Part shown: positions 2,060-62,824 of the stretch, piece by piece
How the letters are laid out: each line of letters starts with the position of its first letter
Position numbering within the stretch: position 1 is the stretch's first letter
IMG/VR virus record: IMGVR_UViG_3300025707_000006
Location: 32,001-96,000 of that record
Length of the DNA: 64,000 bases
Strand: one strand, 5' to 3'
From: a virus
Taxonomy: Duplodnaviria; Caudoviricetes
Made by a program: the position numbers and the translations under genes
The notes under the pieces: model-generated
What the model saw: the letters and a program-made list of their open reading frames with translations, nothing else
Told to the model about the DNA's origin: nothing
Database searches by the model: none

Positions 2060-2821
2060 TTATCTTCTCTTAAACTTCGCTTTATTGAGGTGAATCTGAA
2101 TGTGTCCTTTTTCTCCTATACCAATATCATAGTCCTTATCGTAGCCCGATTTGAGCTTTTGAAATATGGGGTACTTTCTTGTTAGGAGTTTATTAAGATC
2201 ATTGGTTAGAGGTCCAGCCCACTCATCCCACCAACCTTCTTCATCCCAACCTTCTGGATCACAGTCATCATCCCAATCCTCATCACAGTCATAATTCTCT
2301 CCAACATAATGGTCGAGTCTATGTCTATTCATAGGTTCTATCCATAGGAACCAGGTATCTCCATCGTCACTTAGATCCATACCACTCATACGACTGCCAT
2401 TCGGGGTCCTTGATCTAATCAAGAAATCGTATACCTCTTGAGCTGTCGGTAGTTGTTCTTCAACTGTAGGTCGAGATCGAGGTGTTGATCTAGTAGGTGT
2501 TGGTTGTCGAACAGCTCTTGCACTTGGAACAGAGGGTTGTCTACCTGTTGGGTTGGATCTAAATGAGTCAGCCAAGTCAGATGCGTTGTTTCTGTGCATC
2601 ATCTTTCTGATGTTTTTTAGATCACGATCACTAAGATCTCCACCGTCTTTGAGGATCTGAAGGTATCCTCCAAGTTCAATGACCATTCTCGTGTCAGTTC
2701 GGTTTTGAGCTATGAAACCCCTAAGAACTTCATAAGCCTCTGTCTTAGTAGTCGCTTGTTTTTCAAGCCTTGCAATCCTCATCTCAAGACTTCTGATTAT
2801 TTCTGAGGCTGATCTTCTCAT
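2060..2821 (-). CDS. Leader-bearing hypothetical protein with an acidic, Trp-rich segment
   Basis: N-term MRRSASEIIRSLEMRIARLEKQA; DCDEDWDDDCDPEGWDEEGWWDEW tract. Confidence 0.75.
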   Translation of the reverse strand: MRRSASEIIRSLEMRIARLEKQATTKTEAYEVLRGFIAQNRTDTRMVIELGGYLQILKDGGDLSDRDLKNIRKMMHRNNASDLADSFRSNPTGRQPSVPSARAVRQPTPTRSTPRSRPTVEEQLPTAQEVYDFLIRSRTPNGSRMSGMDLSDDGDTWFLWIEPMNRHRLDHYVGENYDCDEDWDDDCDPEGWDEEGWWDEWAGPLTNDLNKLLTRKYPIFQKLKSGYDKDYDIGIGEKGHIQIHLNKAKFKRR

Positions 2822-2874
2822 AAGTGTTCTCCATTGATTTAGGTTAGTTAAGATCTAGTATAATGAAACTATTA
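2753..2874 (-). repeat. Promoter+UTR+leader module copy
   Basis: TAATAGTTTCATTATA...AACCTAAATCAATGGAGAACACTTATGAGAAGATC followed by leader codons. Confidence 0.85.
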
Positions 2875-3774
2875 AAAGCGATCTCTATCAAAAGAATCGC
2901 TATCAAAGTCTGCAATCACATCATATTCAATTTGAGCAACGACAATAACAGTTAAATATCTGTCATCATCTCGAAAGATGTCTCTAACTTCATAATCATA
3001 CTCGATCACTTCGATTTGAGAGATGTTATGATAGCTAGGGAGTCTCTGTTTTATCTCATATTCAACTTCACCAAAAGCTAAGTCAATTTCTTCTGATCCC
3101 ATATTTCTCAAGATGTTGTTCTCAATGTTCTTAGTGAGAGCATCACACAAGATTTTAGTAGATTTATCTTCTGGAGGATAGAAGTCATCTAAGTTCATCT
3201 TAGCTAGTTTCTCAAGGTCTTTTAAGTCAACTTTGAGCTTCATCTTGGTCTTTGATCCTACGACACCCGAAACTGTGTCCAATTCGGGATAAGCTGGATT
3301 GCTAGGGTGTAGCATAGAGTTTGATTCAACTTCGATCTCACCTTTCATAAGTTTTTCATTCTTATTGATGACTTCACCATCAAGAATAGAAGCAGACAAA
3401 GCATGGAGGAAATGATTTGCTTGTCGATCAGAAACACCTGGCATCATTGCTTGAACAGACTTTAATCCTGTACCTGCTTGTTTCAGACTCGCATTACGAT
3501 AACTCGATGTTATCCGATCTGCATCACGATCTGACAGATACATATCTGTATCCCGATCATAATACTTGCCTGCTTTCGGGTCGTAGTAAAGAACTTCACC
3601 ACCTTTAAACATGAAAGGCCCTTCAAGACCTTGATTGGAAAGATCTGTGTACCGATCACGATCAAGACGGGGCAGACGATGTTTAGCCATCATTTCTTCA
3701 TGGTGTCTCTTTGCAGAGGATCTCTTCTCAAGGTTCGCAATACGCACCTCAAGATTTCTGATTGTATCTTTCAT
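2872..3774 (-). CDS. Leader-bearing two-module hypothetical protein (start at ATG 3774)
   Basis: AAATGGAG RBS; MKDTIRNLEVRIANLEKRSS leader variant; GLEGPF..VLYYDPK module; internal RNASLKQAG junction. Confidence 0.75.
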   Translation of the reverse strand: MKDTIRNLEVRIANLEKRSSAKRHHEEMMAKHRLPRLDRDRYTDLSNQGLEGPFMFKGGEVLYYDPKAGKYYDRDTDMYLSDRDADRITSSYRNASLKQAGTGLKSVQAMMPGVSDRQANHFLHALSASILDGEVINKNEKLMKGEIEVESNSMLHPSNPAYPELDTVSGVVGSKTKMKLKVDLKDLEKLAKMNLDDFYPPEDKSTKILCDALTKNIENNILRNMGSEEIDLAFGEVEYEIKQRLPSYHNISQIEVIEYDYEVRDIFRDDDRYLTVIVVAQIEYDVIADFDSDSFDRDRF

Positions 3775-3818
3775 TAGTATCTCCATTTATTTGGTAGGGT
3801 TAATGATCTAAAATTTGA

Positions 3819-4934
3819 CTATCTAAGAGAGACTGCTTCCATTTTATAAGTCAAATAAGTGATTGCAGGGTATCGACTCGCTGTCTTACCCTCTACCATC
3901 TCATCATATTCGTCAGTATTAACCACCCAGCGATACATCGCTTTCTCTAAGAGAGCTAAAAACCCTGTTATGATGAGTGGTGCAAAACTACCTATGTTTT
4001 GTTTTAGATAATCCTTAACCTGATCTGCATTTAAACTGATCGGTTGGTATTGAGATATTGGAGTCTCTATCGTTGTATGCTCAATTTGAAGGAAGTTATT
4101 ATCTGAAGCAGGGATAGCGTCTAATGTAAGATCTCCTTTTGACATTGCTACTTCCATTTTTTTAGCAAGGTCTTGGGCTTCTTCTATCGTGGGGAGCTGT
4201 GTGGTCGGAGGAACTTCTTGAACAATACGAACCCTTGTATTTTGACTCAAAGCGGTATACTCAGTCATATCTGCTAAAGTGGTTCTTAACCCAGAGGCTT
4301 GGACAATCAAACGAGCTAACATCACAATGATCGTGGTCACTACTGTGCCTTTTAAAGCCATTATCCCCACTACCCCTATGAGAGATGTGAAAAAACGATA
4401 AAGTACCTTAGAATACCTTTTAAGAGCGTTCATGAATATCTTAAAGCTATCCCCTTCACTAATCTTCTTAGGGTTAAGGATATGCTTAAAGTCTGAATAC
4501 CATGAAAGGTATGCACTTTTCATCCTCGTTTGGTTTTCGCCCACATACTTTTTAACAAGGTCTTTTAAAGGAATCTTTTTATCCTCTGCCTTACCCCCTG
4601 TGAAGATAGATTTCAAAGGGTCTGAAGGATTAAAGGAAACGATCTTAGGTAAGCCAGCTCTTGTGGTTGTCACACCTGCCATAGCTCTAAAAATCCTTGA
4701 ACCCAACAACGCCCCTAAAGAGTCGTTAATCTTGGATTTATTTCCCTCAACTTCAAGATTGACCGTATTGTATATGTCAGCAAATCCATTGATGATCTTC
4801 TTAACAATGTTCTTAGGGATATTAACAAGACCTTTAAATGTACTTGAAATATCATCTATGAACCCTGCTTGACGCTCTAAGTTTGCGACTCTAATTTCAA
4901 GCTCTCTTATGGTTTCACTGGCAGATCTTCTCAT
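3819..4934 (-). CDS. Leader-bearing protein with hydrophobic (membrane) segments
   Basis: MRRSASETIRELEIRVANLERQA; FFTSLIGVVGIMAL..TIIVMLARLIV and FAPLIITGFLALL hydrophobic helices. Confidence 0.75.
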   Translation of the reverse strand: MRRSASETIRELEIRVANLERQAGFIDDISSTFKGLVNIPKNIVKKIINGFADIYNTVNLEVEGNKSKINDSLGALLGSRIFRAMAGVTTTRAGLPKIVSFNPSDPLKSIFTGGKAEDKKIPLKDLVKKYVGENQTRMKSAYLSWYSDFKHILNPKKISEGDSFKIFMNALKRYSKVLYRFFTSLIGVVGIMALKGTVVTTIIVMLARLIVQASGLRTTLADMTEYTALSQNTRVRIVQEVPPTTQLPTIEEAQDLAKKMEVAMSKGDLTLDAIPASDNNFLQIEHTTIETPISQYQPISLNADQVKDYLKQNIGSFAPLIITGFLALLEKAMYRWVVNTDEYDEMVEGKTASRYPAITYLTYKMEAVSLR

Positions 4935-5428: not shown

Positions 5429-5989
5429 TTAGTATTTGAGATCTAGTCCGAGTTTGCCATCCGTACCTGGTACTTTACAGCAGATACCTACGACTGTTGG
5501 GTCAACACCTAAATTGGCGTTAAGATTAGCGTCTGGGTCATTACATAACAACCCATTTTCGCTTATTTTGAGAGGGTCATTAAGGTTATATGTAATAGGG
5601 CCAGCGTTGCGAACGCCATTAACTGCTAAGGCTGTTGTTTCAAACTCTTTGAACAGAACTCTAGCACCCCCATTAATGAGAGTCAGAACAGCCGCACCCG
5701 AAGCTGAAGCTAATGCACCCGTGTTCTGATAGGATGTGAAGTTTCTGTATGTGGATTGTCTAGCGTCAGCGTAGTTTTCTGATCCATAGAGAACGAAACC
5801 CGCTACATATTGACCATTGGATTTTTCAACGGTAAATTCAGCCACGCTATTTTCGTTTTCTACATAGTGAACCCAAGTGCCACCTTTCCAACCTGTTTGA
5901 CGCATGATCTGTCCTGCGGTGCAAGGTGTTTTATCGCCATTTTTTAAGACATCAATGTCATCCATAGTTAAATTAAGATCTATTGACAT
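5429..5989 (-). CDS. Putative virion structural (head decoration/cement-like) protein
   Basis: Gly/Ala/Thr-rich and beta-like; YNLNDPLKISENGLL..VVGICCKVP pattern resembles capsid decoration proteins; co-oriented downstream of a class-B promoter. Confidence 0.35.
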   Translation of the reverse strand: MSIDLNLTMDDIDVLKNGDKTPCTAGQIMRQTGWKGGTWVHYVENENSVAEFTVEKSNGQYVAGFVLYGSENYADARQSTYRNFTSYQNTGALASASGAAVLTLINGGARVLFKEFETTALAVNGVRNAGPITYNLNDPLKISENGLLCNDPDANLNANLGVDPTVVGICCKVPGTDGKLGLDLKY

Positions 5990-6492
5990 TAGACTTCACC
6001 TTTGTCTTTTTTATCTTGTAAGACCTTCTTGACTGCTTTAGCCATTTCTTTCTTGTCTAAGTGTCTTTCAACAACCTTCTTTACAAGATCCTTTTTCACC
6101 TCAGATTTGGTCTGTACTTTGGGTGTAGGGGGTTTAGCTTTAGCTAACTCATCAAATGAATTAGGTACACCCTTAATCGGTTCTTCTGTTTTCACAATGA
6201 ACTGATTGAGGGTACTGAACTCTTTACCTCCAGGTCTCTTGACGATCTCATCGGGAGGAGGGGGTGCAATCACAGATTCGCTTTGGATGAGATCGTCATC
6301 TTTTTTCATCTCACCCGACTGTATCGCTTTTTCGGCTGTGTCTACTTTGTTTGTGATAGCTTTCGACTCTGCTAAGTTCCTCACTGATCTTTTGGTTGGG
6401 TTGTCAAAGAAAACAGACTCGGCTGACTGTGCCTGTTCAAGCTCTGCTACTCTCCTCATCAATGAGGCTATTTTATATCTAAGATTGCTCAT
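5989..6492 (-). CDS. Hypothetical protein with a leader-like N-terminus
   Basis: MSNLRYKIASLMRRVAELEQAQSA; exact TAATAGTTTATTTATA at 6541-6526 upstream. Confidence 0.7.
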   Translation of the reverse strand: MSNLRYKIASLMRRVAELEQAQSAESVFFDNPTKRSVRNLAESKAITNKVDTAEKAIQSGEMKKDDDLIQSESVIAPPPPDEIVKRPGGKEFSTLNQFIVKTEEPIKGVPNSFDELAKAKPPTPKVQTKSEVKKDLVKKVVERHLDKKEMAKAVKKVLQDKKDKGEV

Positions 6493-7403: not shown

Positions 7404-7568
7404 TTAGCCTAGCTCGTTCTCTTCAATCTCATGCTGAATCTCACATTGTGTGAAGCCGATAATCTCATTACGAGCCTTCTCTCGCATCTCTGCTATAGTG
7501 AAAGATTCACGAGTATGGAAAAGGAAAAGTCTTACTAGTGCGTTTATCTGTGTGATTGTGTATGTCAT
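7404..7568 (-). CDS. Small hypothetical protein (54 aa), not in the ORF track
   Basis: MTYTITQINALVRLFLFHTRESF...; ATGGAGAAC RBS; class-A motif at 7645-7630. Confidence 0.55.
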   Translation of the reverse strand: MTYTITQINALVRLFLFHTRESFTIAEMREKARNEIIGFTQCEIQHEIEENELG

Positions 7569-7720
7569 AGGGTTCTCCATTGGGAGTAAGTTATTGAGGA
7601 GTGAATGTCAGCCCCTCTACACAACACTAATAAATAAGGGGTTACGGTTTGGTTTTTATTAAGTAAATCAAACACTTATGTCTGAAGATGGTTCTTACAG
7701 TTTGGGTTCAACAGATAAGC

Positions 7721-7736
7721 GTAACCCCTTATCTAT
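7721..7736 (+). promoter_or_regulatory. Class-A promoter-like motif GTAACCCCTTATCTAT (representative copy)
   Basis: Copies or variants at 7381(-), 7645(-), 7721(+), 15438(-), 16082(-), 16298(+), 27392(+), 27819(+), 63865(-); each points toward a start codon, mostly 55-80 nt away. Confidence 0.75.
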
Positions 7737-7786
7737 GTACCTAACATAAGGGCAACCAAGCCCAACACTCCCAATGGAGAACCAAC

Positions 7787-8422
7787 ATGGACGCAACAAC
7801 AATCCTTTATATAATCCTTAGTCTGCTTCGTGCAGACAACGCAACGAACTTGGACACCCCAGTGGTTCACAATCACTTGGTCGAGGTGAGCCAATCGATT
7901 GAAGCTCACGCTTCACGCACAGTACCTGCTGTGAGACTTATCTCGTTAGCATATAACGAGAGTCGCTTCGGCTATCGCCATGTTCAAAAGGGTAAGTACC
8001 CTAAGTCAAGTTGGGGTGCTTGCGGTATATACCAACAAGTAGTGAAATACAGCAAGATTAAAACTACCTGTAAGAAACTAGGGACTGATGTTGATCATGC
8101 GACACAGGCGGCTGTGGCTTACCTCTCCTACATGATTGATCGTTGGTCAATCCGAGGTAGTAGTCGTATGGACGAGCGTATGTGTCATTATTTCAGTGGT
8201 AATGACTGCGATGACAATAAAGATGGGAAGTTGAACCTTAAAGATGACGCTATGCAATACGCATCACGACATCGTAAGATACGCTTAAAGGCTCATAAAC
8301 TACGCTCTAAGGCTAGTAGGTCTTTGAAACCACGCACTACTACTCGCAGAGCTAGAAAAGCTCGTAAGATCACATTAGAGAGCCTTTTCGCAGGTGTTCG
8401 CAAAAAGTCCCGTGAAGACTAG
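7787..8422 (+). CDS. Lytic transglycosylase (SLT-like) with a basic C-terminal tail
   Basis: LAYNESRF (catalytic Glu), GACGIYQ, AAVAYL, CHYFSG; hydrophobic N-terminus. Confidence 0.65.
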   Translation: MDATTILYIILSLLRADNATNLDTPVVHNHLVEVSQSIEAHASRTVPAVRLISLAYNESRFGYRHVQKGKYPKSSWGACGIYQQVVKYSKIKTTCKKLGTDVDHATQAAVAYLSYMIDRWSIRGSSRMDERMCHYFSGNDCDDNKDGKLNLKDDAMQYASRHRKIRLKAHKLRSKASRSLKPRTTTRRARKARKITLESLFAGVRKKSRED

Positions 8423-8495
8423 ATATATGACGCAGGTATATTAACTGTTCTTTTGCTTTGGTTTGTAGACTGTTAAGAACCTTAATCTAAAAGGC

Positions 8496-8915
8496 ATGAA
8501 GATGTATACGAAAAAAGTAGGATCACAGAGAGGGATGAAAAAGATTGAGGATTGGTATGGGGTCAATAAGAGCACCCCAGATCAGTGGTTTCATCGTTGG
8601 GAGCAGTTCTTAGTATCGTTAATGTCCGAGTTGGGCTATCAGTGCGTGGGGAATGAGTCTGTAAAAAAGCCGAAGGGGAAGCATTGGTCTAAGACGATGA
8701 AGTTCACCCACTCTAGCCTAGACGATATTATCCTTTACCTTAGTCGTAATCGTAGACAGGAAGGTGGTAGTCTCTGCCTTGTGTATGATACCTACGAAGC
8801 TACTATTGAAACATTAAGTGATGAGGTTATGTCGAGGCAAAAAGTCGGGGGCCAGATCTTAGGTCATATCCGAGAGGGATGGTCTAAGAGCAAAAATGTT
8901 AACCAAGAAGATTAA
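8496..8915 (+). CDS. Hypothetical protein, paralogue of the next gene
   Basis: VNKSTPDQWF..ELGY...IREGWS. Confidence 0.65.
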   Translation: MKMYTKKVGSQRGMKKIEDWYGVNKSTPDQWFHRWEQFLVSLMSELGYQCVGNESVKKPKGKHWSKTMKFTHSSLDDIILYLSRNRRQEGGSLCLVYDTYEATIETLSDEVMSRQKVGGQILGHIREGWSKSKNVNQED

Positions 8916-8928
8916 GGGCAAGAGAGTA

Positions 8929-9300
8929 ATGAGAGTTCTCCCTGTGTGGAGATGCGTCAATAAAACCACCCCTTTTATCTGGTTTGAGAAATATGAAAGG
9001 TTCTTAACTGATCTAGGATATGAGCTTGGTTTTATCTCTATAGAGATCAGTGGAGTACAAACCATAAGCGATAGCTTCTACCTCACGATGACTTTTCGCC
9101 ATATTGAGGGTAAAACTTTTATGTTTATGCTCATGAGGAGCAAACAGTTTTTTGGTGGTGGGATAACACTCAAACAAGACGGTGTGAAAACCGATTTCTT
9201 TATGACTGCTACTCCCTCACATGGGTCATTTCAAGAGTCTAGGACTGACATCGGGAACTGGTTTATTGAGCAGATCCGAGACTCTTGGAGTTTATTCTAG
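8929..9300 (+). CDS. Hypothetical protein, paralogue of the previous gene
   Basis: VNKTTPFIWF..ELGF...IRDSWS. Confidence 0.6.
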   Translation: MRVLPVWRCVNKTTPFIWFEKYERFLTDLGYELGFISIEISGVQTISDSFYLTMTFRHIEGKTFMFMLMRSKQFFGGGITLKQDGVKTDFFMTATPSHGSFQESRTDIGNWFIEQIRDSWSLF

Positions 9301-9873
9301 TCCAAACTTTTTACGAGATACTGGGAGAAATCCGAACCCAGGTGATATGGAGTCTCCTGTTGAGATTTGATTTCCCTTATCATCGACTTTCATATTAAAG
9401 GTCGCCTTCTCTACAGTTCCTGGAGAAAAGGTAGCGACTTCTTCAATATGGTCAGCCCATGCGAGGAGATACCGACTACCTTCAAATGGTTCACCCTTAA
9501 AGTCGGTTCGTAGTCCATAAGCAAACACAGGTATTTCGAGCAAGTCAACGACCTTTGTTAGACCGAGAACTTGCTCACGACTAAAGAACTGAGCTTCGTC
9601 AACAAAGACGACTTGGATACCCTCTGATCCGACATCTTTTCTGAAGATCACCTCTTGCATAATGAGGTTGTAGGGATCTTCACTTGTTCCGACTGTGGTA
9701 GCTTTCTGCTCAAAGCCGATCCTTGAGGCGACTTTTGATTTCCCATCCCGACCTTGTGCCACTTCTGGTACAAGGATACGAAACTCTATTTCTCGCTCTT
9801 TACAGGAATGTGCTCTCATGATGAGGTTAGCAGATTTACCTGCGTTGACAGTGGAGTAGATAAAGTTTAACAA
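9292..9873 (-). CDS. tdk: Thymidine kinase
   Basis: YSTVNAGKS P-loop, VASRIG, VFVDEAQF, YGLRTDFKGEPFEGS..LLAWAD. Confidence 0.93.
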   Translation of the reverse strand: MLNFIYSTVNAGKSANLIMRAHSCKEREIEFRILVPEVAQGRDGKSKVASRIGFEQKATTVGTSEDPYNLIMQEVIFRKDVGSEGIQVVFVDEAQFFSREQVLGLTKVVDLLEIPVFAYGLRTDFKGEPFEGSRYLLAWADHIEEVATFSPGTVEKATFNMKVDDKGNQISTGDSISPGFGFLPVSRKKFGLE

Positions 9874-10472
9874 GGTAATAAATCCTCTCGTTCAAGTAAG
9901 TAAGCGACCTTTTCACGCACCTGCTTTACATACTTATTAACGAGTCTAATTTCCCAACCATATTCACGACTGATATGGGCTTTCTTTAGTCCGTTTATAA
10001 GGGCATCATACACTTTGAGTAAAACTCCTGAAAAACTGGCTCTGATTTCTTCTGCGAAGATTGCGTCTGAGGGGTCTTCCTCATAAGACGCATTATATGA
10101 ACAAGCCACATCCTCTTCCACACCAGGTACAAATCTATCACCCACACGATTAAATTTGTTCATGAAGTTCATGGTGATGCAATCAACCACCATAACAATA
10201 TAAGTAGACAACGCAGATTTATCTGGGTCATAAGGACATGACCCTCTATTTCGGATGAGTAGCCCTTTGTATACCTCTTGTAGTACCTCTTCGGTATCGA
10301 CTCCCGTTTTCATCAAATTCACCCCTTGTCTTTTGTAGAACAGCTTTTTGATGTCTTCTTTGTGTTTCCCTATATCAATACCCAGTGCTTTTACTTTGAA
10401 AGTATATGAAAAAATAGTAGGTAATCCCTCTTGCCACTTATATTTGGGCGAGAGGTCAGTATAATCATACAT
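9867..10472 (-). CDS. ECF-type RNA polymerase sigma factor-like protein
   Basis: Region 2-like DTEEVLQEVYKGL..YDPDKSALSTYI; region 4 HTH-like GLKKAHISREYGWEIRLVNKYVKQVREK. Confidence 0.7.
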   Translation of the reverse strand: MYDYTDLSPKYKWQEGLPTIFSYTFKVKALGIDIGKHKEDIKKLFYKRQGVNLMKTGVDTEEVLQEVYKGLLIRNRGSCPYDPDKSALSTYIVMVVDCITMNFMNKFNRVGDRFVPGVEEDVACSYNASYEEDPSDAIFAEEIRASFSGVLLKVYDALINGLKKAHISREYGWEIRLVNKYVKQVREKVAYLLEREDLLPC

Positions 10473-10530
10473 TAAGCCCCCTTTGCGTTTGGTCGGTAGA
10501 TGTACTCTTCATGTAGAAAGGTTGTTGTCA

Positions 10531-11517
10531 ATGAAAAAGACATTTCAAATCGAAATACTACATTGGGCTAAGACAAAGCACAATGTAGACACTAAATATA
10601 TACATAAATCTTTATCTGACAAGGATTTTAATAGTCTTTGCTTACTTTTGCACAAAAATAGGGGTATTGGCTCGGTGGTAGACACCAAAGAGATGGTGAG
10701 CGAGTACCTCAAAGAACATGGCATACAGTATATACCTCAATCTTTTAACGGGGTCGATGTAGATCTAAACTTCTTCTTCAACACCCACCCTCTCCAAGAA
10801 GATGGCTCGATTGAAGTTGATCTGTACCATATACTCTTACATTCGTGGTGTAAACCGAGTAGGATAAACTACAGAATACTTAAAAAACATCTTAAAGAAC
10901 TAGGGTATGGTTTAAAAACTTCATCTCCTACCTATTCTAATCACACAGAAAACTGCGTAGTTTCTCTTAAAACCAACTACCCTTTAAGTTTACCAAAGAC
11001 TCTGACACGCAATACCAAATCTATTAAGTGGTATGCAGAAGTACACCGTTGGATTTATTTGGAGTCCCCTAAAATCGAACTGAATGGCGAAACCTATACT
11101 TTGAATAGTATAGGTGAGAGGTGGGAAGCGTACTTTACAAAGCGTTTAATCGATCTTTTTGTCATGTCTGAAACTCCTTATCTACATAAGCACCCTCAAG
11201 TGAGAGGTGCTTACGAAAACGCCCCCCCTGTTCTTGCCCTGTGTGAACTGACACTTCGAGATGTTTTTAAGCCGACTAAGTTAAAAGACTGGGTAAATAC
11301 AGCTTTAAGGACTTCTGACCTTGAGACTTACGGTAAAGAGTCGGAGGTAGATGAGGTCTTTTTAGATACTGTTTATGATGAGGTTTGTGGCAAACTATCT
11401 AAAACTATGATAAAAGGCAACCCCATTAAAAGTTTTGATGTCGTTGGGGGTTGGATTTCTATAATAGTGATTGCTTACCTCAATGATATTTTGAGTGAAT
11501 ACCGATCACTATTATAA
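10531..11517 (+). CDS. Hypothetical protein
   Basis: Long ORF with an AGGT RBS-like sequence before ATG 10531. Confidence 0.65.
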   Translation: MKKTFQIEILHWAKTKHNVDTKYIHKSLSDKDFNSLCLLLHKNRGIGSVVDTKEMVSEYLKEHGIQYIPQSFNGVDVDLNFFFNTHPLQEDGSIEVDLYHILLHSWCKPSRINYRILKKHLKELGYGLKTSSPTYSNHTENCVVSLKTNYPLSLPKTLTRNTKSIKWYAEVHRWIYLESPKIELNGETYTLNSIGERWEAYFTKRLIDLFVMSETPYLHKHPQVRGAYENAPPVLALCELTLRDVFKPTKLKDWVNTALRTSDLETYGKESEVDEVFLDTVYDEVCGKLSKTMIKGNPIKSFDVVGGWISIIVIAYLNDILSEYRSLL

Positions 11518-11525
11518 GGAACAAG

Positions 11526-12320
11526 ATGAATCTACTGATATTTTTAGGACTCTCTTTTCAGTGTATGTTGAACCATATGTCTTATGCGTCCTCTATCCAC
11601 ATAAGACCTGGATGGGATGTGGTTCAATCAAGACCAGCTTCAGAGAGGCAACTTAAGAGGTTTCTAAGAGAACTGACAAAGAACGAAGAAGAATATATTG
11701 ACCCTCGCATCCTAGCCTTATCTTGGGTTGAGTCTCGTATACGACCAAGAGTACGAAGAGGAGATCGTGGTAAAGCCTGTGGGATGTTTCAAATCCATGC
11801 TCGCTACTCTTATCCCATGTTCAGAAGACGAAGGGGATTCAACGGTTGGGTCGAGGAAGAACAAAAAGAGGTGATTGGTAAGGAATGTCGCAAACTCGAA
11901 TCTATAAGGTACTCTGTAAAGACCGTAGAGAAACTTTTAGGTATGATGGATAAGAGAGACTTACACCCTTGTCATCATAACAGTGGCTTCTATGGTCGGT
12001 GTAATACATGGTATAAACAACGAGTAGATTACTGGACTGCGTACTTTAAATTCGCCAACTTTATATGCAATGAAAGGATAGTGAAGATTATGGCTATGAT
12101 GAGAACAGGAAATCCCATACCCACAGCACCCGCTACAATGATACAAGGATACCTAGACGCTATGGGAGGTAAAGAACCCCATAGCGAAGATACGACTTAT
12201 AAGTCGGGGTATGATCTAGCCAAACTCGTACAAGAGGGGAAGGCTCAAGCACCCTCTTGGGCGACTGAAGACTCAAACAGCACCTCGACAACAAGCGAGG
12301 GAACTGAGCGTGAGGGATGA
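11526..12320 (+). CDS. Lytic transglycosylase (SLT-like) with signal peptide
   Basis: ILALSWVESRI, GKACGMFQI, CHHNSG; hydrophobic N-terminus. Confidence 0.6.
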   Translation: MNLLIFLGLSFQCMLNHMSYASSIHIRPGWDVVQSRPASERQLKRFLRELTKNEEEYIDPRILALSWVESRIRPRVRRGDRGKACGMFQIHARYSYPMFRRRRGFNGWVEEEQKEVIGKECRKLESIRYSVKTVEKLLGMMDKRDLHPCHHNSGFYGRCNTWYKQRVDYWTAYFKFANFICNERIVKIMAMMRTGNPIPTAPATMIQGYLDAMGGKEPHSEDTTYKSGYDLAKLVQEGKAQAPSWATEDSNSTSTTSEGTEREG

Positions 12321-12981
12321 TTGGATAAGGCAAGGATTAATAGGGACACACCCTATACACCTACCTTATCTAGTATCAAGAGGGGTGAATGAAAGTTGTC
12401 TAGTAGATTTCTACTCATGGCAACCCCACACCAATGTTCAATGTCCAAAGTTTAAAGCTAACTTTGGACATTCAGGTGAGCGTATTAAAGACTCACTCAT
12501 AATCCCTATTACTTCCCCACGAGGGGAGATCTTAGGGATGGAAACACGCAGGATCAACGAGGACGGGTCTAAAAGAGTACATCAGTACCGAACCCTCAAT
12601 GCTCAATGGAATCCTTATGCTTTAGGTGCAGAGGAAGGTTTTAAGGCATTGTGGGAACTAGGAGATTTATGGGTTGTTGAGGGGATCTTTGATAAGATCT
12701 CTCTCGATAAGGTCATACCTAGTTGTGATGCCTGTATCTCAACCTTGAGGGCTGGTATGGATGCTATCACAATGGACATGATAGAGCGTTTCTACACACC
12801 TGCCTCAACCATATACATCTGTTATGATAATGATGAGACAGGTCAGAAGAAATCATATTGGCTTCAGCGTGAGATGAAGAAGCGAGGTATGAGGGCTGTT
12901 ATCTGGAAGTATCGAGGGAAAGACCCTAACGATGTGTGGACACAAGGAGGAGATCAAGCTCTAAGGAGAATGTTCCTGTAA
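12310..12981 (+). CDS. DNA primase (DnaG-type catalytic core/TOPRIM, no zinc-binding domain)
   Basis: YLVSRG, LIIPI, WVVEGIFD, ICYDNDETG, GKDPND. Confidence 0.85.
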   Translation: MRDDWIRQGLIGTHPIHLPYLVSRGVNESCLVDFYSWQPHTNVQCPKFKANFGHSGERIKDSLIIPITSPRGEILGMETRRINEDGSKRVHQYRTLNAQWNPYALGAEEGFKALWELGDLWVVEGIFDKISLDKVIPSCDACISTLRAGMDAITMDMIERFYTPASTIYICYDNDETGQKKSYWLQREMKKRGMRAVIWKYRGKDPNDVWTQGGDQALRRMFL

Positions 12982-14255
12982 TCTTCTTCAATATCTCTTA
13001 CTTCTAAATCCATGATTGCGTAAGAAAGCCCATCAACACCTCTCTTACTTTCATTTAGATTTATAGTAAAGTGTTTAGTTCCTGTTGTGATGTCCTCATC
13101 TTCTTCATTCTCAAAATATTCAATAACACATTGAATGTCCAAACGAAAATCTTCTTCATCGAAGAAAATCTTATCCCTTTCGAGATAATAATCGGAAAGC
13201 TCATATACCTCTCTACCTAGTTCAGTGCTTATCCACCTATCCACAACCTTAATCAAATGTTTTAATGCTTTCCCACTTCTATCTATTAAGTTAAGATTAA
13301 TCGCCTTACGAGCGTTACCGTAGGATTGTTTTTCGAGTCTTGCGATCCTCATCTCAAGAGGATTAATGATTTCTGATGCTGATCTTCGGTTAGAGGTACT
13401 TTTCAGATGTTTTACCACTTCTTTACGATCATGCTTTCCATCTACACTCCCTACTTCAACCCCGACAGGTTTTGCATCGGGAGAGCTAAAGTAAATGTAA
13501 GCCAAAAAGTGTTCATCAACCATACCCTTCTCTTCACAAAAGTCATCATAGCATATTTCTTTCTTTTGACCCTTATCAATCAAAAGCTCATAAAGACCCT
13601 GCTCGGATTTGATTTGCACAGCTTTGAGAATCTTTGGTCTGCTTTTGAAACCTTTGATAAATTTGGCTCTTTCAGCGGCTTTAATGACTTCTGTCTCCGT
13701 TAAACCAAAAGAGTCTTTTACCCATCTTTGAGAGAAGAAGTCTTTAACATCTTTAAAGTTAAATGCTTGTTTTTCAAGTCTAGCGATACGACCCTGTTTA
13801 CGAAGCCTATCTCGCTCTTGGTTGACCATTTTTTGATGCTCCTCTACTTCTTTACGAGCACTCTCTTGACCTACACGATAAATAACTTGATCAACGACTC
13901 GTTTAATGAAGTTTCTTTCGCTCATCTTTGAGTCATTTGCACCACTCAGTTCAAAGTCTACTTGTCTAAAGTCTCTGTTTCCACCTGTGATCTTGTACTC
14001 AGCAGTATCTTTCCCTTCTCTTTTTAGAGAGACTTGGTACACCTCACCTTCAAATTTGAACTTCCCTGATAACCGATTGTCCTTATCCATTTTCACATCA
14101 GAATTGACTGCTCTGTTGTCTTTTAGTCCTTTTAAAAACCACCCATGTACCGTATCTAGGGGGTTTTTTTCAAAAAGTCCAAAGATTGCTTGTTTTTCAA
14201 GACGAGCAATCCTCATCTGAAGGTTATTAATAATTTCACTGGCAGATCTTCTCAT
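12954..14255 (-). CDS. Three-module polyprotein-like protein with the leader repeated three times (start at ATG 14255)
   Basis: MRRSASEIINNLQMRIARLEKQA / GRIARLEKQA / RRSASEIINPLEMRIARLEKQS, separated by ~110-125 aa of unrelated sequence. Confidence 0.8.
   Translation of the reverse strand: MRRSASEIINNLQMRIARLEKQAIFGLFEKNPLDTVHGWFLKGLKDNRAVNSDVKMDKDNRLSGKFKFEGEVYQVSLKREGKDTAEYKITGGNRDFRQVDFELSGANDSKMSERNFIKRVVDQVIYRVGQESARKEVEEHQKMVNQERDRLRKQGRIARLEKQAFNFKDVKDFFSQRWVKDSFGLTETEVIKAAERAKFIKGFKSRPKILKAVQIKSEQGLYELLIDKGQKKEICYDDFCEEKGMVDEHFLAYIYFSSPDAKPVGVEVGSVDGKHDRKEVVKHLKSTSNRRSASEIINPLEMRIARLEKQSYGNARKAINLNLIDRSGKALKHLIKVVDRWISTELGREVYELSDYYLERDKIFFDEEDFRLDIQCVIEYFENEEDEDITTGTKHFTINLNESKRGVDGLSYAIMDLEVRDIEEDYRNILLRA
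13323..13388 (-). repeat. Internal copy of the leader-coding repeat
   Basis: CGAAGATCAGCATCAGAAATCATTAATCCTCTTGAGATGAGGATCGCAAGACTCGAAAAACAATC. Confidence 0.85.
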
Positions 14256-14318
14256 AATGGTTCTCCATTTGATTAAGGTTAGACTGATCACTTATGAGAA
14301 CCTATAAATAAACTATTA
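14187..14318 (-). repeat. Promoter+UTR+leader module copy
   Basis: TAATAGTTTATTTATAGGTTCTCATAAGTGATCAGTCTAACCTTAATCAAATGGAGAACCATTATGAGAAGATC. Confidence 0.9.
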
Positions 14319-14321
14319 AAG

Positions 14322-14654
14322 TCACCACCATGAGAGGTAAACGATCTCATACCCATCGTCTATTGCCTGTATAGCCGATTCTATGAACCTCCCTGTTTGA
14401 GTCTCCTCATATTTGCCACTCACTCCCCAAAAAGACCCTTTCGCTGTTTGTAAATTTTGATATTCATCTTTGAGTCTTAACAAGTCATCTTTGTCTAGGG
14501 AAAGCTCAACGCAGTTGAAACTCTCAGCGTTACCTCCTTTGGCATAGTATAACTCAGACATCCAGCCTTCAAGGTTGGCGTGTTTACGCCACTGTATGAT
14601 GTAGGTGTCTTCTTCGTCTTGTCGTCTTGTGAACGCATATTGATCTAATCCCAT
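14322..14654 (-). CDS. Conserved phage hypothetical protein (MGLDxY type)
   Basis: MGLDQY..WRKHANLEGWM..FNCVEL..Y.SWW; GAGGAG RBS. Confidence 0.7.
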   Translation of the reverse strand: MGLDQYAFTRRQDEEDTYIIQWRKHANLEGWMSELYYAKGGNAESFNCVELSLDKDDLLRLKDEYQNLQTAKGSFWGVSGKYEETQTGRFIESAIQAIDDGYEIVYLSWW

Positions 14655-14670
14655 TTATTGCTCCTCTGTG

Positions 14671-14931
14671 TTATGGTTCATTTCTATCAAAGTATTTGGG
14701 TAAGTCTATGATCTCGATAACTAAGATACCCTCTTGATCCGTAGTTAAACCCAAGCGTTTTGAGGGGTCATAAGCCTCAACCAAATGGTACTCTTTTTCA
14801 GGTCTGCTCATGTCGTAGTAAAGGCTTATTCCGTATCCGTCATAGGTCTTTGCTAGCCAGCTATAGTTGTGTTGACCATTGGGTTTTGGGTCTTTGCCTA
14901 TCAGATAGCTGATAGTTTCGATCTCTCTCAT
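14671..14931 (-). CDS. Hypothetical protein
   Basis: GGAGG RBS before ATG 14931. Confidence 0.55.
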   Translation of the reverse strand: MREIETISYLIGKDPKPNGQHNYSWLAKTYDGYGISLYYDMSRPEKEYHLVEAYDPSKRLGLTTDQEGILVIEIIDLPKYFDRNEP

Positions 14932-15005
14932 GATGACCTCCAAGTTTTCACTAAGGCGACAATAATAGCCACCTCAATGAGTCCACAGATTAAAGCGTAT
15001 GCCAT

Positions 15006-15368
15006 TTATTTGTCCTTTCGAGTCCAAGAGCCTGTCCAACTAGACTCTGTTGAGTTAAAGCCCCATTGGGGTGTTCCCAAAACAGGTGCAGGAGCTACGG
15101 TTTTACCGAGAGCTTTACGCTCCACCTCCCAAGACGATGCTCCTGTCTCATCACAGATGTACTTGAAGCTCACATAGCGATGCTTTTGACCCTTCTTGAT
15201 GTTGAACTTAGGGTGGTCTTTACGAGCGACCACCACTTTGTTAACAAAGGTGGCGTACCAATAACCATCCTCGTACTCGTACCCACTACAAGTGAGATGA
15301 CCACGATTCAAGCCGTCATAACCTTCTTCAGCCATGTAGTCGTTGTATCTGTCCATTGCTAAACTCAT
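15006..15368 (-). CDS. Hypothetical (putative early) protein
   Basis: AAGGAGAAC RBS; class-A motif at 15438-15423. Confidence 0.65.
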   Translation of the reverse strand: MSLAMDRYNDYMAEEGYDGLNRGHLTCSGYEYEDGYWYATFVNKVVVARKDHPKFNIKKGQKHRYVSFKYICDETGASSWEVERKALGKTVAPAPVLGTPQWGFNSTESSWTGSWTRKDK

Positions 15369-15449
15369 GTTGTTCTCCTTAGTGGAGTCTTGGTTGATGA
15401 GGTTCATTCCTCATGTAGTCTTATAGATAAGGGGTTACAGTTTCACCCC

Positions 15450-16010
15450 TTAGTCCTCATCTTCCTCCTCTCGCTCCTGCTCCTCACGATCAGCGGTACA
15501 CCATTTACAAAGAGCTTCATCATGGTATTCGTACTCGCTGATCTCATTCCCACAGTCCTCACACTCGTACTCCTCTTCGGGATCAGTCTCGATCTCAAGA
15601 GCACCCTCTGAGGTGTAGAAGGTGAAAGTACCATCATAGTAGTCAGCTCTACTAACTTGATCTTTTGTCATGGACACTGCTTTGACCCCACTGTCTTTGA
15701 GTTTCTCTTGGACTACCTCGTCCTCGATAAGCTCGACAGGGATTGCCCCAATGAGTCCTGCGTCAACAGGATAAGAGCGTCCGTCAGACCCCACATAAAA
15801 TCCATCGCCATGAGCTGTGGAATGCACAAAGATGGGATGACCCATGTAAGTGAGGTGTCCGTCAAAGTCCTCTTTGGACTCTGCCTTTTCAAGATCCTCG
15901 CAGAAGTTATTAACCCAAAGAGCATCGTTAGTCGCCCCTCCTGCCTCGATGGTGTGGAGGAAATAACAAGGATCTCCGATAAAGTGTGTTGGTGTTGGTG
16001 TCGCAGTCAT
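15450..16010 (-). CDS. Hypothetical protein with a C-terminal zinc finger and acidic tail
   Basis: FIGDPCY, TAHGDG, VDAGLIG, CEDC..CKWC; class-A motif at 16082; GGAG RBS. Confidence 0.7.
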   Translation of the reverse strand: MTATPTPTHFIGDPCYFLHTIEAGGATNDALWVNNFCEDLEKAESKEDFDGHLTYMGHPIFVHSTAHGDGFYVGSDGRSYPVDAGLIGAIPVELIEDEVVQEKLKDSGVKAVSMTKDQVSRADYYDGTFTFYTSEGALEIETDPEEEYECEDCGNEISEYEYHDEALCKWCTADREEQEREEEDED

Positions 16011-16059
16011 TTTTATTCTCCGTTTGGGGGAGTGATGAGGTAGTGATTCTGCCTCCATA

Positions 16060-16293
16060 CTAGGCAATAGATAAGGGGTTACAATCACACATTCGGGATT
16101 GGTTCTCCATATATAGACGAGCAGACTTAGAGATCTCAACGACATCAATCCTTGCTGTCTTTAAGTGGTTTGCTTGATCCACCTTCTCGGCTTCGATTTC
16201 TGCCACGATGCGTAGCGAATATACCTTCTCTACCTTGCCTTTGTGCGTGTAGTAGAGTGGCTGTCCTGTAGCTTTATTCTGAACATAATACAT
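16060..16293 (-). CDS. Small hypothetical protein
   Basis: MYYVQNKATGQPLYY...; fills the intergenic gap. Confidence 0.4.
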   Translation of the reverse strand: MYYVQNKATGQPLYYTHKGKVEKVYSLRIVAEIEAEKVDQANHLKTARIDVVEISKSARLYMENQSRMCDCNPLSIA

Positions 16294-16420
16294 AACTGTA
16301 ACCCCTAACCTATAAGAGATTGTGAGCGATCTCACTTGAAAGGATATTATACATGAAAATCTTAGAACAGAATAATATAACTACACTATCCATCAACCAA
16401 GACTCCATGAAAGGGGTAGC

Positions 16421-17632
16421 ATGAATCAGAACACATTTGTTATAGGAGGTGAATCTAAGTTCGCCTCTAAGTTTGTTGAACGCCTTAACAAACGCTTTGG
16501 TGATGAGTTGAAACTCATCATATCTAATCACAAGACATGGGATCAATCAGGAGATCGCAGAGAGGACATCCCCTCTGGCACCGACTTGGTTCTTGTCCTC
16601 AAGTCCAACTGCAACCACTCTTTACGAAACTGGGCAAAACAAGAGACCCTAAAAGAGGACATCAAGTTCATCGAATGTTCACACAAGACTGCCATAGCTG
16701 AGATGGACATAAGACACTGTTATCAACTACCCATGAATACAAACCTTGATACGACTCAAGAAGAACTTGATCTGTATGAGACTTGGGGTAGTTTCTTGGG
16801 TGAGCGTATCTTTATCCTTCCCCTTCTCGGCATGGAAGACGAAGGAATCTTTAATGGAAGAGATGCTTATGAGCGTATGCCTTGGGTGAAGACAGGTAAG
16901 AAAAAGATGGTAGCCAAGTGGGATCGTCTTTGGGTGTCTTACTCGAAGGATAGCTCGGAGGGTCTTCGTGCGATTCTCAATCGTGTTGCGAAAACTGAGG
17001 GTAGAAAAGCAACTCTTGAACCTCTCCATTTAATGAATAAGGGTAAGTCTCCTTACTTCAAACTCATTGAGATCTTTAAGTCCTTTAAAGATGGTAGCTT
17101 AGGTCGAGGTCAAGTAAATATGGTCGCTGATCAATGGGTTCGTGATGCGTATCTTGGCACAAACCTAAGAGACTTTCAAAGCAAGTCCAATCTCAAATAT
17201 GCCTTAAACTTAATCTTTGGTGCAGGTCTTGATGGGTTATCGCCCGAAACCTTAGAGGTCGTAGAAGAACACTTCCCTAAGCGTGGTAGACCAAAGGCTA
17301 AGAAGAGTTTGAAGACATCCACTCCAGTGGTTGAAACTACAGAGCAGGATCAAAACGAGACTCTAACCCCTATCCTTACTCAAGAGGATTGGGATGACTA
17401 TGTGGCACAAAACCCAATCATCGAAGAGGAGATTGAGCAACCTGTTGAACAACCTGTATCGGTAGACTCTCATGTACTTCTTGGTACTCTTAAACTCACA
17501 CCTAACGATAATGTGATCTGTATTGGTGAGGTACATCTTGAGGGGGATGTTCACATTTATGGTGACATCTCTCTTGAAGTTGATCGCATTGAAAATAACA
17601 CCCTATATGGTGTTAAAATCAAGAAAGGCTAA
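16421..17632 (+). CDS. Protein with an N-terminal DUF2325-like domain
   Basis: FVIGG...IPSGTDLVLVLKSNCNHSL..AKQE...IKFI; C-terminal beta module shared with the next gene. Confidence 0.6.
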   Translation: MNQNTFVIGGESKFASKFVERLNKRFGDELKLIISNHKTWDQSGDRREDIPSGTDLVLVLKSNCNHSLRNWAKQETLKEDIKFIECSHKTAIAEMDIRHCYQLPMNTNLDTTQEELDLYETWGSFLGERIFILPLLGMEDEGIFNGRDAYERMPWVKTGKKKMVAKWDRLWVSYSKDSSEGLRAILNRVAKTEGRKATLEPLHLMNKGKSPYFKLIEIFKSFKDGSLGRGQVNMVADQWVRDAYLGTNLRDFQSKSNLKYALNLIFGAGLDGLSPETLEVVEEHFPKRGRPKAKKSLKTSTPVVETTEQDQNETLTPILTQEDWDDYVAQNPIIEEEIEQPVEQPVSVDSHVLLGTLKLTPNDNVICIGEVHLEGDVHIYGDISLEVDRIENNTLYGVKIKKG

Positions 17633-19419: not shown

Positions 19420-19764
19420 ATGAGTGAATGGGTCGTATATGTCATCCAGAGTCAGCAGATCAGACGCTCTGCTAAGACAGGTAAAGAACTACCTGGTTTC
19501 TTCTATGTAGGTTGCACCACAGATGTTAACCGTAGGCTGAGACAGCATCAGGGTTTCATCAAAGGAGGCGGGAAATACACTGCAAAGCACCGACCTTGGA
19601 AGCTCATGTGTACTTATGGCACATACGCTAATAGATCAGAAGCCATGAAAGCTGAGATGGCTCTAAAGAAAAAGCGTGGTAAGGCTAGGCTCTATTGGAC
19701 AGAGCAAGAGTCTAAATGGTGTCGAGGTCGTAAAGAAATAGGACTTAAAAACGACTGTATTTAG
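19420..19764 (+). CDS. GIY-YIG endonuclease (SLX1/UPF0213-like)
   Basis: VVYVI...FYVGCTTDVNRRLRQH..GGKYT..RPWKL...EAMKAE..LKK. Confidence 0.88.
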   Translation: MSEWVVYVIQSQQIRRSAKTGKELPGFFYVGCTTDVNRRLRQHQGFIKGGGKYTAKHRPWKLMCTYGTYANRSEAMKAEMALKKKRGKARLYWTEQESKWCRGRKEIGLKNDCI

Positions 19765-20083
19765 CTATGTCTGAATCCATCTGTTCATTCATCATCCCAT
19801 GAGGCGGGTTTCCAATATCTAAAGCGTCACCCGTAGATGTTGTCATAAGAATATGATGATACTTTGAGTAGTTTATTTCTACACCATTAGAAAGAGAGAT
19901 AGAAACCATCTCTCGACCTGTAGGGTCCTTCCCTCTTTGCACATCAACAACATTTCTGTTTGATAGTTTTTGCTCGGCAAGATCGTGAACATAACGCAGA
20001 TCTACGGCCTCACTAGCAAACCTTTCAAGTTTCGCAATCCTAGTCTCAAGGTTTCTAAGGATTTCTGATGCAGATCTTCTCAT
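19745..20083 (-). CDS. Leader-bearing small protein
   Basis: MRRSASEILRNLETRIAKLERFA. Confidence 0.75.
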   Translation of the reverse strand: MRRSASEILRNLETRIAKLERFASEAVDLRYVHDLAEQKLSNRNVVDVQRGKDPTGREMVSISLSNGVEINYSKYHHILMTTSTGDALDIGNPPHGMMNEQMDSDIAKYSRF

Positions 20084-20179: not shown

Positions 20180-20569
20180 TTAGAGCCTGCGAAGAACCCT
20201 CTTAGACTCCTTGAGGAAGTCTGCCTTAACAGAGTCAGAGTCTGGTCCAACCTCGACACGACCAATGGTCAGTCTACCCTGGTTTCCTTCAGACACATCA
20301 ACTAAAATGAGATATCCATTCTTCAAGTCTTCTTCATACACGACATTAACATGATTCATATAGCCATTTGTCCACCTTAACGCTCCTGTAGGCGAAGACT
20401 CAAGAGTATAACCTAACAATTTAGTTCCCGCTAACCTTCTCACAGATTGCATGGGGGACGAGGCGAGGCTGTGTCGGATGCGATAGAGGGGATCAGGTGT
20501 AGATTGTCTTTCAAGACGAGCGACCCTAGTCTCAAGGTTACGGATGATTTCTGATGCTGATCTTCTCAT
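20180..20569 (-). CDS. Leader-bearing small protein (start at ATG 20569)
   Basis: MRRSASEIIRNLETRVARLERQS. Confidence 0.75.
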   Translation of the reverse strand: MRRSASEIIRNLETRVARLERQSTPDPLYRIRHSLASSPMQSVRRLAGTKLLGYTLESSPTGALRWTNGYMNHVNVVYEEDLKNGYLILVDVSEGNQGRLTIGRVEVGPDSDSVKADFLKESKRVLRRL

Positions 20570-23990: not shown

Positions 23991-24584
23991 TTATTTTCCC
24001 ATCTTAAACTTTCCACCCACAGGCAGAGTTTCGGTTACAGCCCAAGAATCTGATTGATACCTCTTAGGTCGAGATTGTGGTTGAGTAGGCTTGGGTGCTT
24101 CACCTATCGTGATTTCTTGAGGTGGCGTATTCAGTGGGTTCTGATACACCTGTGGATTAGGTAATCCGACTTTAGGTGCTGAGGTCTTCACTGAACTCTC
24201 TTCTTCTCCTTCAAACTCTGGTGTATCCACTGGAGGTGCAGGGAGCGTATCTTCTTCCCCCCTATCTATGACACCACCTATAATCAAAGGGGATTGTGGC
24301 AGTTCTTCTGGGACTCCCCAAACCTCTATCACTTGTGGTTCTTGAAAACCTTCAAAGTCTGAAACACCCTCCCATCTGCTACCATCTGCTTGAAGCACAA
24401 TGTTAGGGTTTTCAAGGAGTCGGTCTACTTGACTGAGTATACGCCTATCCCAAGAGCTAAAAGCCATCCCTGCACGAACACACTCTCTATTTTTACATTG
24501 GTTACAAAAGGTACGCTCGAACTCTGGTGGACTCATCATCCCACCCTCATTACAATCTACAAAGAAATCTTTATTAGGCTTCAT
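23991..24584 (-). CDS. Hypothetical protein with a Cys cluster and Pro-rich tail
   Basis: DC..FCNQCKNREC. Confidence 0.65.
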   Translation of the reverse strand: MKPNKDFFVDCNEGGMMSPPEFERTFCNQCKNRECVRAGMAFSSWDRRILSQVDRLLENPNIVLQADGSRWEGVSDFEGFQEPQVIEVWGVPEELPQSPLIIGGVIDRGEEDTLPAPPVDTPEFEGEEESSVKTSAPKVGLPNPQVYQNPLNTPPQEITIGEAPKPTQPQSRPKRYQSDSWAVTETLPVGGKFKMGK

Positions 24585-24594
24585 ATAACTGCTC

Positions 24595-62818: not shown

Positions 62819-62824
62819 AGCCTG

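Follow-up and report, generated by a model that had tools for sequence, protein, structure and literature searches.

A three-unit open reading frame in an uncultured marine phage, probably built by recombination at a repeated leader

Introduction

How did one phage gene come to carry the same leader peptide at its N-terminus and again further along its reading frame, each time ahead of a different sequence, and what might such a leader do? The question is raised by an open reading frame (ORF) at positions 12954-14291, on the minus strand, of a 64,000-nucleotide stretch of DNA (the window), which is bases 32001-96000 of the 107,480-bp IMG/VR virus record IMGVR_UViG_3300025707_000006 (G000 below; CheckV completeness 34%). 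The original prediction for this locus, made from the letters of the window, was that leader-cargo cassettes had been concatenated by recombination at the leader repeat, and that the leader works inside the protein as a protease site or binding tag would and a Sec/Tat signal would not. The record is, to judge from its genes, a fragment of an uncultured giant myovirus-like phage, and the sequencing runs that contain the locus are labelled marine or seawater metagenomes. Neither blastn of positions 12000-16000 nor tblastn of the ORF gave a match in 50,697 GenBank phage records, and keyword searches of open-access text returned no description of the leader family. The comparisons below involve metagenomic contigs and, above all, two relatives of G000: a sister phage, G001, whose corresponding locus is L009, and a complete relative, G002, which includes locus L099 (375,691 bp; CheckV 100% complete).

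Results

The ORF is uninterrupted. Translation probably begins at the conserved ATG at 14255, 6 nt after a GGAGA, and gives a protein of 433 aa (12957-14255, minus strand, as are all features of the gene given here) ending at the stop codon 12954-12956. The N-terminal leader, MRRSASEIINNLQMRIARLEKQA (aa 1-23; 14187-14255), was recognised by a hidden Markov model (HMM) of the leader, and a helix is predicted at residues 5-26 by AlphaFold2 (AF2), with a predicted local distance difference test (pLDDT) score of 70-79. It is followed by module 1 (aa 24-154; 13794-14186), modelled as a helix, a five-stranded sheet and a long helix; by a partial leader, GRIARLEKQA (aa 155-164; 13764-13793), which corresponds to leader positions 15-23; by module 2 (aa 165-289; 13389-13763); by a full internal leader, RRSASEIINPLEMRIARLEKQS (aa 290-311; 13323-13388; HMM independent E-value, iE, 1.3e-14); and by module 3 (aa 312-433; 12957-13322). 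The leader had been said to stand at the N-terminus and again within the same frame, and so it does: the full internal copy lies exactly at the predicted 13388-13323, and the partial copy is present at 13793-13764, one base away from the approximate 13794-13765 first given. The full internal copy is preceded by Asn rather than Met, and has no ATG, Shine-Dalgarno sequence or promoter upstream. The stretches behind the three leaders, of 131, 125 and 122 aa, differ from one another as claimed, blastp having found no likeness among the three modules or between them and nine other cargos (best E 0.86 among the 12 cargos).

A loose 8-residue pattern of the leader core had 109 matches among 14,234 distinct open frames, a set that comprises three phage records and, for the greater part, the loci fetched around leader matches, and is leader-enriched by design; in 20 residue shuffles the same pattern matched 1.75 times on average and 5 times at most. 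The leader thus recurs far beyond chance. Repetition within a frame is rare: just 3 of the 105 motif-bearing frames have the pattern at least twice, and the 433-aa ORF alone has it three times. This ORF is also the longest of the 91 complete leader ORFs sampled (59-433 aa) and, because their median length is 149 aa, it is about three normal units long.

Could the frame be an assembly artefact, that is, a chimeric ORF created when an assembler jumped from one repeated leader to another? Leader repeats do break de Bruijn contigs, and most contigs of the locus end at 14224, inside the N-terminal leader, which would be expected of a repeat. However, the internal junctions lack a stop, an untranslated region (UTR) and an ATG, a state that no repeat-mediated misjoin would produce, and the frame recurs in independent data. 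The identical 433-aa protein (P0135) is found on 49 contigs, the longest of 310 kb, and its variants M415K, N31T+M415K and E295G on 6 further contigs, so that the full-length ORF is present on 55 contigs altogether. At least 80% of the sampled words of the locus occur in 20 public runs from 13 named studies; among the sequencing runs listed, none of RNA was seen to contain it. In four independent runs, from 4 studies that carry no flag as a possible source, contigs extend across both internal junctions (X12, 12800-14224; X11, 13089-14224; X10, 12906-13811; X14, 13164-13811) with no stop or indel, all differences being missense or synonymous; these are Logan contigs, not raw reads, and rare variants would not show in them. 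An artefact is accordingly refuted as far as contigs allow, and we regard it as extremely improbable. The uninterrupted ORF that the original prediction called for is almost certainly a real gene.

How might three units have come to share this frame? Each module is found behind an N-terminal leader of its own in related phages, as would be expected if the units had once been separate. A leader and module 1 make up the whole of P0005 (156 aa, 49% identity); in P0002, P0004, P0012 and P0014 the module leads on to another cargo, four different ones in all. P0003 (79%), P0013 (88%), P0007 and P0008 begin with a full Met-leader and then module 2, and those proteins share with the 433-aa ORF the junction at which LE(K/R)(Q/E)A runs directly into FNFKDVKDF. 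Module 3 forms a stand-alone leader gene, P0139 (145 aa), with a 100% identical cargo, and is the first unit of the two-unit protein P0006 (51%); it also weakly resembles the second cargo of L009 (33% over 55 aa, E 2e-4).

At L009, the same locus in the sister phage, beside the same Toprim gene, there is an ORF of 274 aa that consists of the leader, module 1 (99% identical), GRIARLEKQA and then a different cargo. From 14320 to 13765 the window and L009 are 95.9% identical in DNA; there is no identity from there until 12998, where it resumes at 85.9%, and the break in homology falls at the last codon of the partial leader. Runs X10 and X14 contain both the three-unit form and the joint of the L009 type (12982 to 13765). 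In three runs, contigs join 14226 to 13366 with 3 extra letters, which may represent a further allele (module 2, leader and another cargo) or a cross-mapping of other leader genes.

Fusion and loss are seen at other sites as well. At G000 24332-25375, outside the window, a 190-aa non-leader gene is fused in frame to a complete Met-leader and its cargo, and the same 190-aa gene stands alone in G001 (24077-24661). Four further fusions were found in G002, one of them with the second cargo of L009 behind an internal leader. The cargo recognised by IA.TIV.QLGGGRKLQ is alone at G001:19008, behind a partial leader in another of the four G002 fusions (G002:191526) and behind module 1 in P0004. The three leader genes at window 2060-4934 are missing from G001 as one 2.9-kb block, with one edge at the last gene's stop and the other within the UTR of the first gene.

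Because the modules recur separately and the break with L009 lies at the end of the partial leader, fusion and exchange at the leader are well supported, and the gene very probably originated in this way. The claim that cassettes were concatenated by recombination at the repeat is likewise borne out by the alleles that coexist in the same samples. We propose that a normal member of the family would be a portable unit, made up of a promoter-like motif, a conserved 5′ UTR, a 23-codon leader and an ORFan cargo of about 100-200 aa. Because leader DNA recurs 10-30 times per genome, recombination could take place at the leader, where it would swap, delete, duplicate and sometimes fuse cargos. In this gene, two deletions would account for the frame: the first would have placed codon 15 of the next leader directly behind module 1, and the second codon 2 of a third leader behind module 2. 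The internal copies are recombination scars at the least, and may still serve as cleavage or docking sites.

What is conserved in the leader, the peptide or the nucleic acid? Among 91 distinct leader DNAs, Arg15 and Arg18 are each encoded by six codons and Ala5 and Ala17 by four, Ser6 is TCA in 49 and AGT in 33, and the ratio of nonsynonymous to synonymous polymorphism (pN/pS) is 0.37 at a pS of 0.58. The leader search pattern fixed or limited positions 1-7, 12, 13, 15, 16, 19 and 20, and residue conservation at these positions is therefore partly by construction; the codon diversity is not. One could suppose that the leader has no function as a peptide and is merely the translated end of a mobile expression cassette kept at the DNA or RNA level. 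Codons 2-4 are indeed nearly fixed (AGA in 80 of 84, AGA in 83 of 84 and TCA in 57 of 69), and the 60 nt upstream are conserved between phages of 41% and 45% GC. However, an invariant residue may have as many as 6 synonymous codons, switches between TCN and AGY occur, the pN/pS is 0.37, and a full internal copy is present without promoter, UTR or ATG. We consider this explanation very unlikely, and the codon patterns indicate that the leader is selected as a peptide.

The leader is hydrophilic on the whole, with a mean Kyte-Doolittle value of -0.62 and no hydrophobic core, and strongly amphipathic: its helical hydrophobic moment (muH) is 0.51, against 0.27±0.13 in shuffles, 4.4% of which reach the observed value, and I9, L12, I16 and L19 lie on one heptad stripe. 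AF2 places helices at residues 5-26 and 293-317 of the 433-aa protein, the second with low confidence (pLDDT <50). By these models the leader is a basic amphipathic helix. It is not a Sec/Tat signal, in agreement with the original prediction: an RR pair is present, but the h-region is missing, the best 9-residue Kyte-Doolittle window reaching 0.47. Conservation ends sharply at position 23, and positions 23 and 24 are mostly small residues (A or S in 76 of 91, and S, A, G or T in 64 of 91, respectively). The sole A-X-E of the leader, A5-S6-E7, is conserved (the search pattern forced A5 and limited positions 6-7); the conserved block continues for another 16 residues behind it, and the partial internal leader lacks it. 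Two PHROG families, phrog_32499 and phrog_19498, match leader residues only (E about 1e-5), with no stretch that passes alone, and were not counted.

How widely is the leader distributed? In the 107-kb record the HMM found 11 N-terminal copies, 1 divergent copy (window 3765), 2 internal copies and 1 cargo-less remnant; it gave 33 matches in G002 and 11-13 in each of three other large relatives. In IMG/VR, 125 leader stretches were confirmed, in many contigs. About 7% of the genes called have the leader. It was not found in the 485-kb distant relative LR745208.1, nor by tblastn in the 50,697 GenBank phage records, in which a mycobacteriophage tail protein matched at E=10 and was treated as chance. 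A strict leader pattern, run over 185,579 bacterial and archaeal species genomes, had a sole match, inside an unrelated high-GC ORF, which was discarded as spurious.

The other leader genes that the HMM identified in the window are those at 2060-2821 (253 aa), 2872-3786 (the divergent one, 304 aa, beginning MKDTIRNLEVRIANLEKRS; HMM iE 1.6e-6), 3819-4934 (371 aa), 19745-20083 (112 aa) and 20180-20569 (129 aa), all on the minus strand, and that at 32201-32650 on the plus strand (149 aa). The last has a duplicated leader end, as had been noticed, and reads RIARLERQS-GRGSN-RLERQA. At G000 24244-24313, about 7.7 kb before the window and just downstream of another leader gene, a promoter and UTR precede a mini-ORF that consists of the leader only (ending in LESRIARLENKLF and a stop) and looks like a cassette remnant. 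A 167-aa gene at window 5989-6492 (minus strand), behind the same promoter and conserved in G002 (211013-211531), starts with MSNLRYKIASLMRRVAELEQAQ, a leader-like heptad helix without the RRSASE part; judging from its sequence, the gene product may be a tag related to the leader, or a partner.

Pfam recognised no family in the 433-aa ORF, module 2 included, and searches of IMG/VR with module 2 alone and module 3 alone returned nothing. Module 1 is the only confidently folded module (AF2 pLDDT 84-93 for residues 31-130 and 75-88 for residues 131-150); confidence is low for module 2. Among other searches with the protein, PDB profile matches were all at E >0.2, the ESM Atlas gave no usable match, and fold matches in BFVD had TM scores of at most 0.2.

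The gene is preceded by a promoter-like motif, TAATAGTTTATTTATA (14303-14318, minus strand; an exact match), which ends 47 nt upstream of the ATG and recurs at about 25 places elsewhere in the record. In G002 a 15-nt version was counted 37 times, and 5 shuffles gave 0-1 copies. In G002 the motif precedes 13 leader genes, an Mtd_N tail-fibre gene (2084 aa) and many ORFans; the replication genes lack it. Ten motif-driven G002 genes were checked, of which one is the Mtd_N tail fibre, one a topoisomerase IB and eight are without assignment. Between motif and ATG lies a 5′ UTR of 47 nt (14256-14302, minus strand) which, in 95 upstream regions aligned by eye, contains CATAAGTGATC, AACCTTAA and AATGGAGAA in this order, or TCTCATAAGTGATCTCTTTAACCTTAA followed by AATGGAGAA; GGAGA is at about 14262-14266. 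This UTR, too, is conserved between phages of 41% and 45% GC, and in many copies its 5′ end is able to pair with the Shine-Dalgarno region. In 31 canonical leader-gene UTRs, alifold found no consensus RNA structure; the Shine-Dalgarno sequence was paired in 23 of the 31 single folds, a count made without a control, and a hairpin that hides the ribosome-binding site was dropped as a candidate. The UTR may be a protein-binding operator.

Several genes were noted in passing. The topoisomerase IB of G002 (L099:1715-3142; G002 61715-63145), which has the same promoter motif, is of the eukaryote/poxvirus type (Pfam Topoisom_I, 1.3e-12). At G000 1855-2715, outside the window (L115:1858-2715), the motif precedes the gene for a 286-aa protein with 1259 homologues at E <1e-5 and many invariant residues, without a Pfam or PHROG family and with an AF2 mean pLDDT of 48.9, too low for a fold search; a core structural role in this phage group is probable. 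At G000 7487-17423, also outside the window, there are five paralogous genes of about 400 aa that start with MFF(D/E)Y(E/K), one of which has weak DNA-methyltransferase-like PHROG matches. The window itself has 41% GC and no tRNA genes, and encodes a family-A DNA polymerase, helicases, a Toprim protein, a gp6-like baseplate wedge protein and several proteins of 1000-2000 aa. By the DNA polymerase, the closest named record is LR745208.1, an uncultured phage of 485 kb (45% identity). In G001 the order is inverted, and the promoter side of the three-unit gene abuts the homologue of window ~63854; this joint (14320/~63854) reflects either a genome rearrangement at the promoter repeat or a chimeric assembly in one of the two records.

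Discussion

What, then, is the leader for? We considered that it might dock all proteins of the family to one common partner, and by analogy with known systems a docking or sorting tag is a reasonably probable function. As a sorting tag, it could direct the proteins into the phage head, to be delivered along with the DNA; the capsid-targeting sequence of phage T4 acts in this way on the internal proteins. In the fusion, the first leader would then carry all three cargos. Of the possible destinations the capsid is the likeliest, although to capsid targeting specifically we give less than an even chance. The propeptides of giant-phage head proteins, which can be 20-24 residues long (PMC10052503), and the promoter-like motif before the Mtd_N tail-fibre gene speak for such a tag. 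The explanation as a whole, in which leader-cargo cassettes were fused and the leader is a sorting tag, is one towards which we lean slightly.

Several observations weigh against it. A tblastn search of the 50,697 phage records for relatives yielded no cultured one, and neither a virion proteome nor a partner protein was found. Pfam S77 (PF03420) and S78 have no matches in G000 or in the complete G002, although divergent proteases could be missed and no profile of the gp175/gp245 type was used; Gp23 (PF07068) has none in G000, where no capsid or portal gene was identified, and among 20 further G000 ORFs compared with PHROGs only helicases, a nuclease and a QueC-like protein had matches. The cleavage motif L/I-X-E of T4 is not in the leader, in which the P3 residues of E7, E13 and E20 are A, N and R, and a cut after the sole A-X-E (A5-S6-E7) would remove just 7 residues. 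The leader genes sit amid replication genes (Toprim, DNA polymerase, helicases) and not in a recognised head module, and the promoter-like motif is also found before the type IB topoisomerase gene in G002 and a nuclease gene in G000. The cargos offer no functional hint, because only 1 of 33 leader proteins has a convincing Pfam domain (WGR, 4e-13), PHROGs being uninformative; and the best fold match of module 1, the Fbxo7 FP domain (Z 9.1, rmsd 2.8, 100 residues aligned), is weak, in a range rated as common.

The fusion might instead be a true polyprotein, in which a phage protease cuts at or next to the leader ends, after LE(K/R)Q(A/S), to release three mature proteins, the internal leaders being selected as cleavage spacers. 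The abrupt end of leader conservation at position 23 and the small residues at 23 and 24 would suit such a site; a C-terminal piece of the leader is found at the junctions of independent fusions (the 433-aa gene, L009, P0014, P0006, P0009 and G002:191526); and the gene at 32201 duplicates precisely the leader end. The head proteases of T4 and SPN3US, moreover, remove short N-terminal propeptides and also cut internally (PMC10052503). However, a deletion that ends inside a leader always retains the 3′ end of that leader, whether or not it has a function, and because recombination geometry alone predicts it, the retained RIARLEKQA needs no selection. In P0003, P0004 and P0013 the internal copy has degenerated or almost disappeared, the intact internal copy of the 433-aa gene has a Pro11 that is found in 0 of 91 N-terminal leaders, one population variant changes its Glu7 to Gly (E7G), and the three sites are followed by I, F and Y in place of the usual small residues. 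Nor did Pfam S77 and S78 reveal a protease in G000 or G002. We therefore think a polyprotein improbable, and cleavage at the internal copies, as such, doubtful to the same degree. A bolder proposal, that one 23-residue helix serves at once as the sorting code by which a clade brings dozens of interchangeable ORFan effectors into the particle, as the handle for their recombination and as a protease-cut spacer, so that fused cassettes would travel together and then be freed as single proteins, a DNA-phage counterpart of viral polyproteins, seems to us quite unlikely.

It is also conceivable that the partner to which the leader helix docks, or with which it oligomerises, lies outside the virion (a host factor, for example, a phage hub protein, or a chaperone or protease adaptor), and that the fusion is a multi-domain effector of that system. 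The amphipathic pattern of two to three heptads with Arg/Glu flanks, the scattering of leader genes among replication and accessory genes, and the hypervariable ORFan cargos, which resemble those of host-takeover or counter-defence gene sets, are all consistent with this idea. Against it, no partner was identified; this weakness is common to the capsid reading, and in silico nothing separates the two. We regard a non-virion partner as rather unlikely.

How does the locus compare with known systems? In the polyproteins of RNA viruses, units are delimited by protease sites. A recurring short sequence between units is common to them and to the 433-aa gene; here, however, no protease is known and separate genes are the norm, 3 of 105 frames being multi-leader. 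The capsid-targeting sequence of T4 is about 10 residues long and ends in the gp21 cleavage motif L/I-X-E. The leader differs in its length of 23 residues and in lacking the motif. It has, besides, no sequence similarity to the T4 peptide, no S77 protease was detected by Pfam in G000 or G002, there are about 30 copies per genome against a handful, multi-unit fusions occur, and packaging is here putative. What the two have in common is a short conserved N-terminal peptide on otherwise unrelated, fast-evolving small proteins, whose genes behave as exchangeable cassettes; the T4 proteins in question are the internal proteins IPI, IPII and IPIII (PMC3012670; Mullaney and Black 1996, as cited in PMC10052503).

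Head and ejection proteins of giant phages can have N-terminal propeptides; in SPN3US those of head proteins have 20 and 24 residues, and gp245 cleaves at sites with A-X-E at P3-P1 (PMC10052503). Short propeptides of about this length, in a giant phage, are the common ground, and the leader contains an invariant A-S-E; by contrast, the SPN3US propeptides are not one shared sequence, a cut after A-S-E would leave 16 leader residues in place, and the partial copy has no A-X-E. Polyvalent proteins, which are known from phages and conjugative elements and for which co-delivery with DNA and possible processing have been proposed, likewise combine several unrelated modules in one polypeptide, and relatives differ in how these are combined (Iyer et al. 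2017, PMC5512222). As portrayed there, their modules are recognisable enzymatic domains (MuF, ART, MPTase), often accompanied by a peptidase of their own, in contrast to the small ORFan modules found here, with no peptidase domain and with a repeated leader between the units. The locus is closest in kind to the T4 capsid-targeting cassettes and to polyvalent proteins, and by the features tested it is a member of neither.

If the leader is indeed a sorting tag, then all the accessory proteins that these phages deliver or co-localise, about 30 per genome and nearly all without known domains, would be marked by a single 23-residue peptide. This peptide would then provide a direct handle for finding counter-defence or host-takeover effectors in metagenomes and, in the way that the T4 sequence is used, could be attached to foreign proteins to have them loaded. 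Whatever its function, a short repeated coding sequence drives the exchange, gain and loss of cassettes and the fusion of genes in phage genomes: related phages have three-unit, two-unit and single-unit allelic states, two of which occur together within the same samples of water. The leader family thus shows how a phage group shuffles a large set of tagged proteins.

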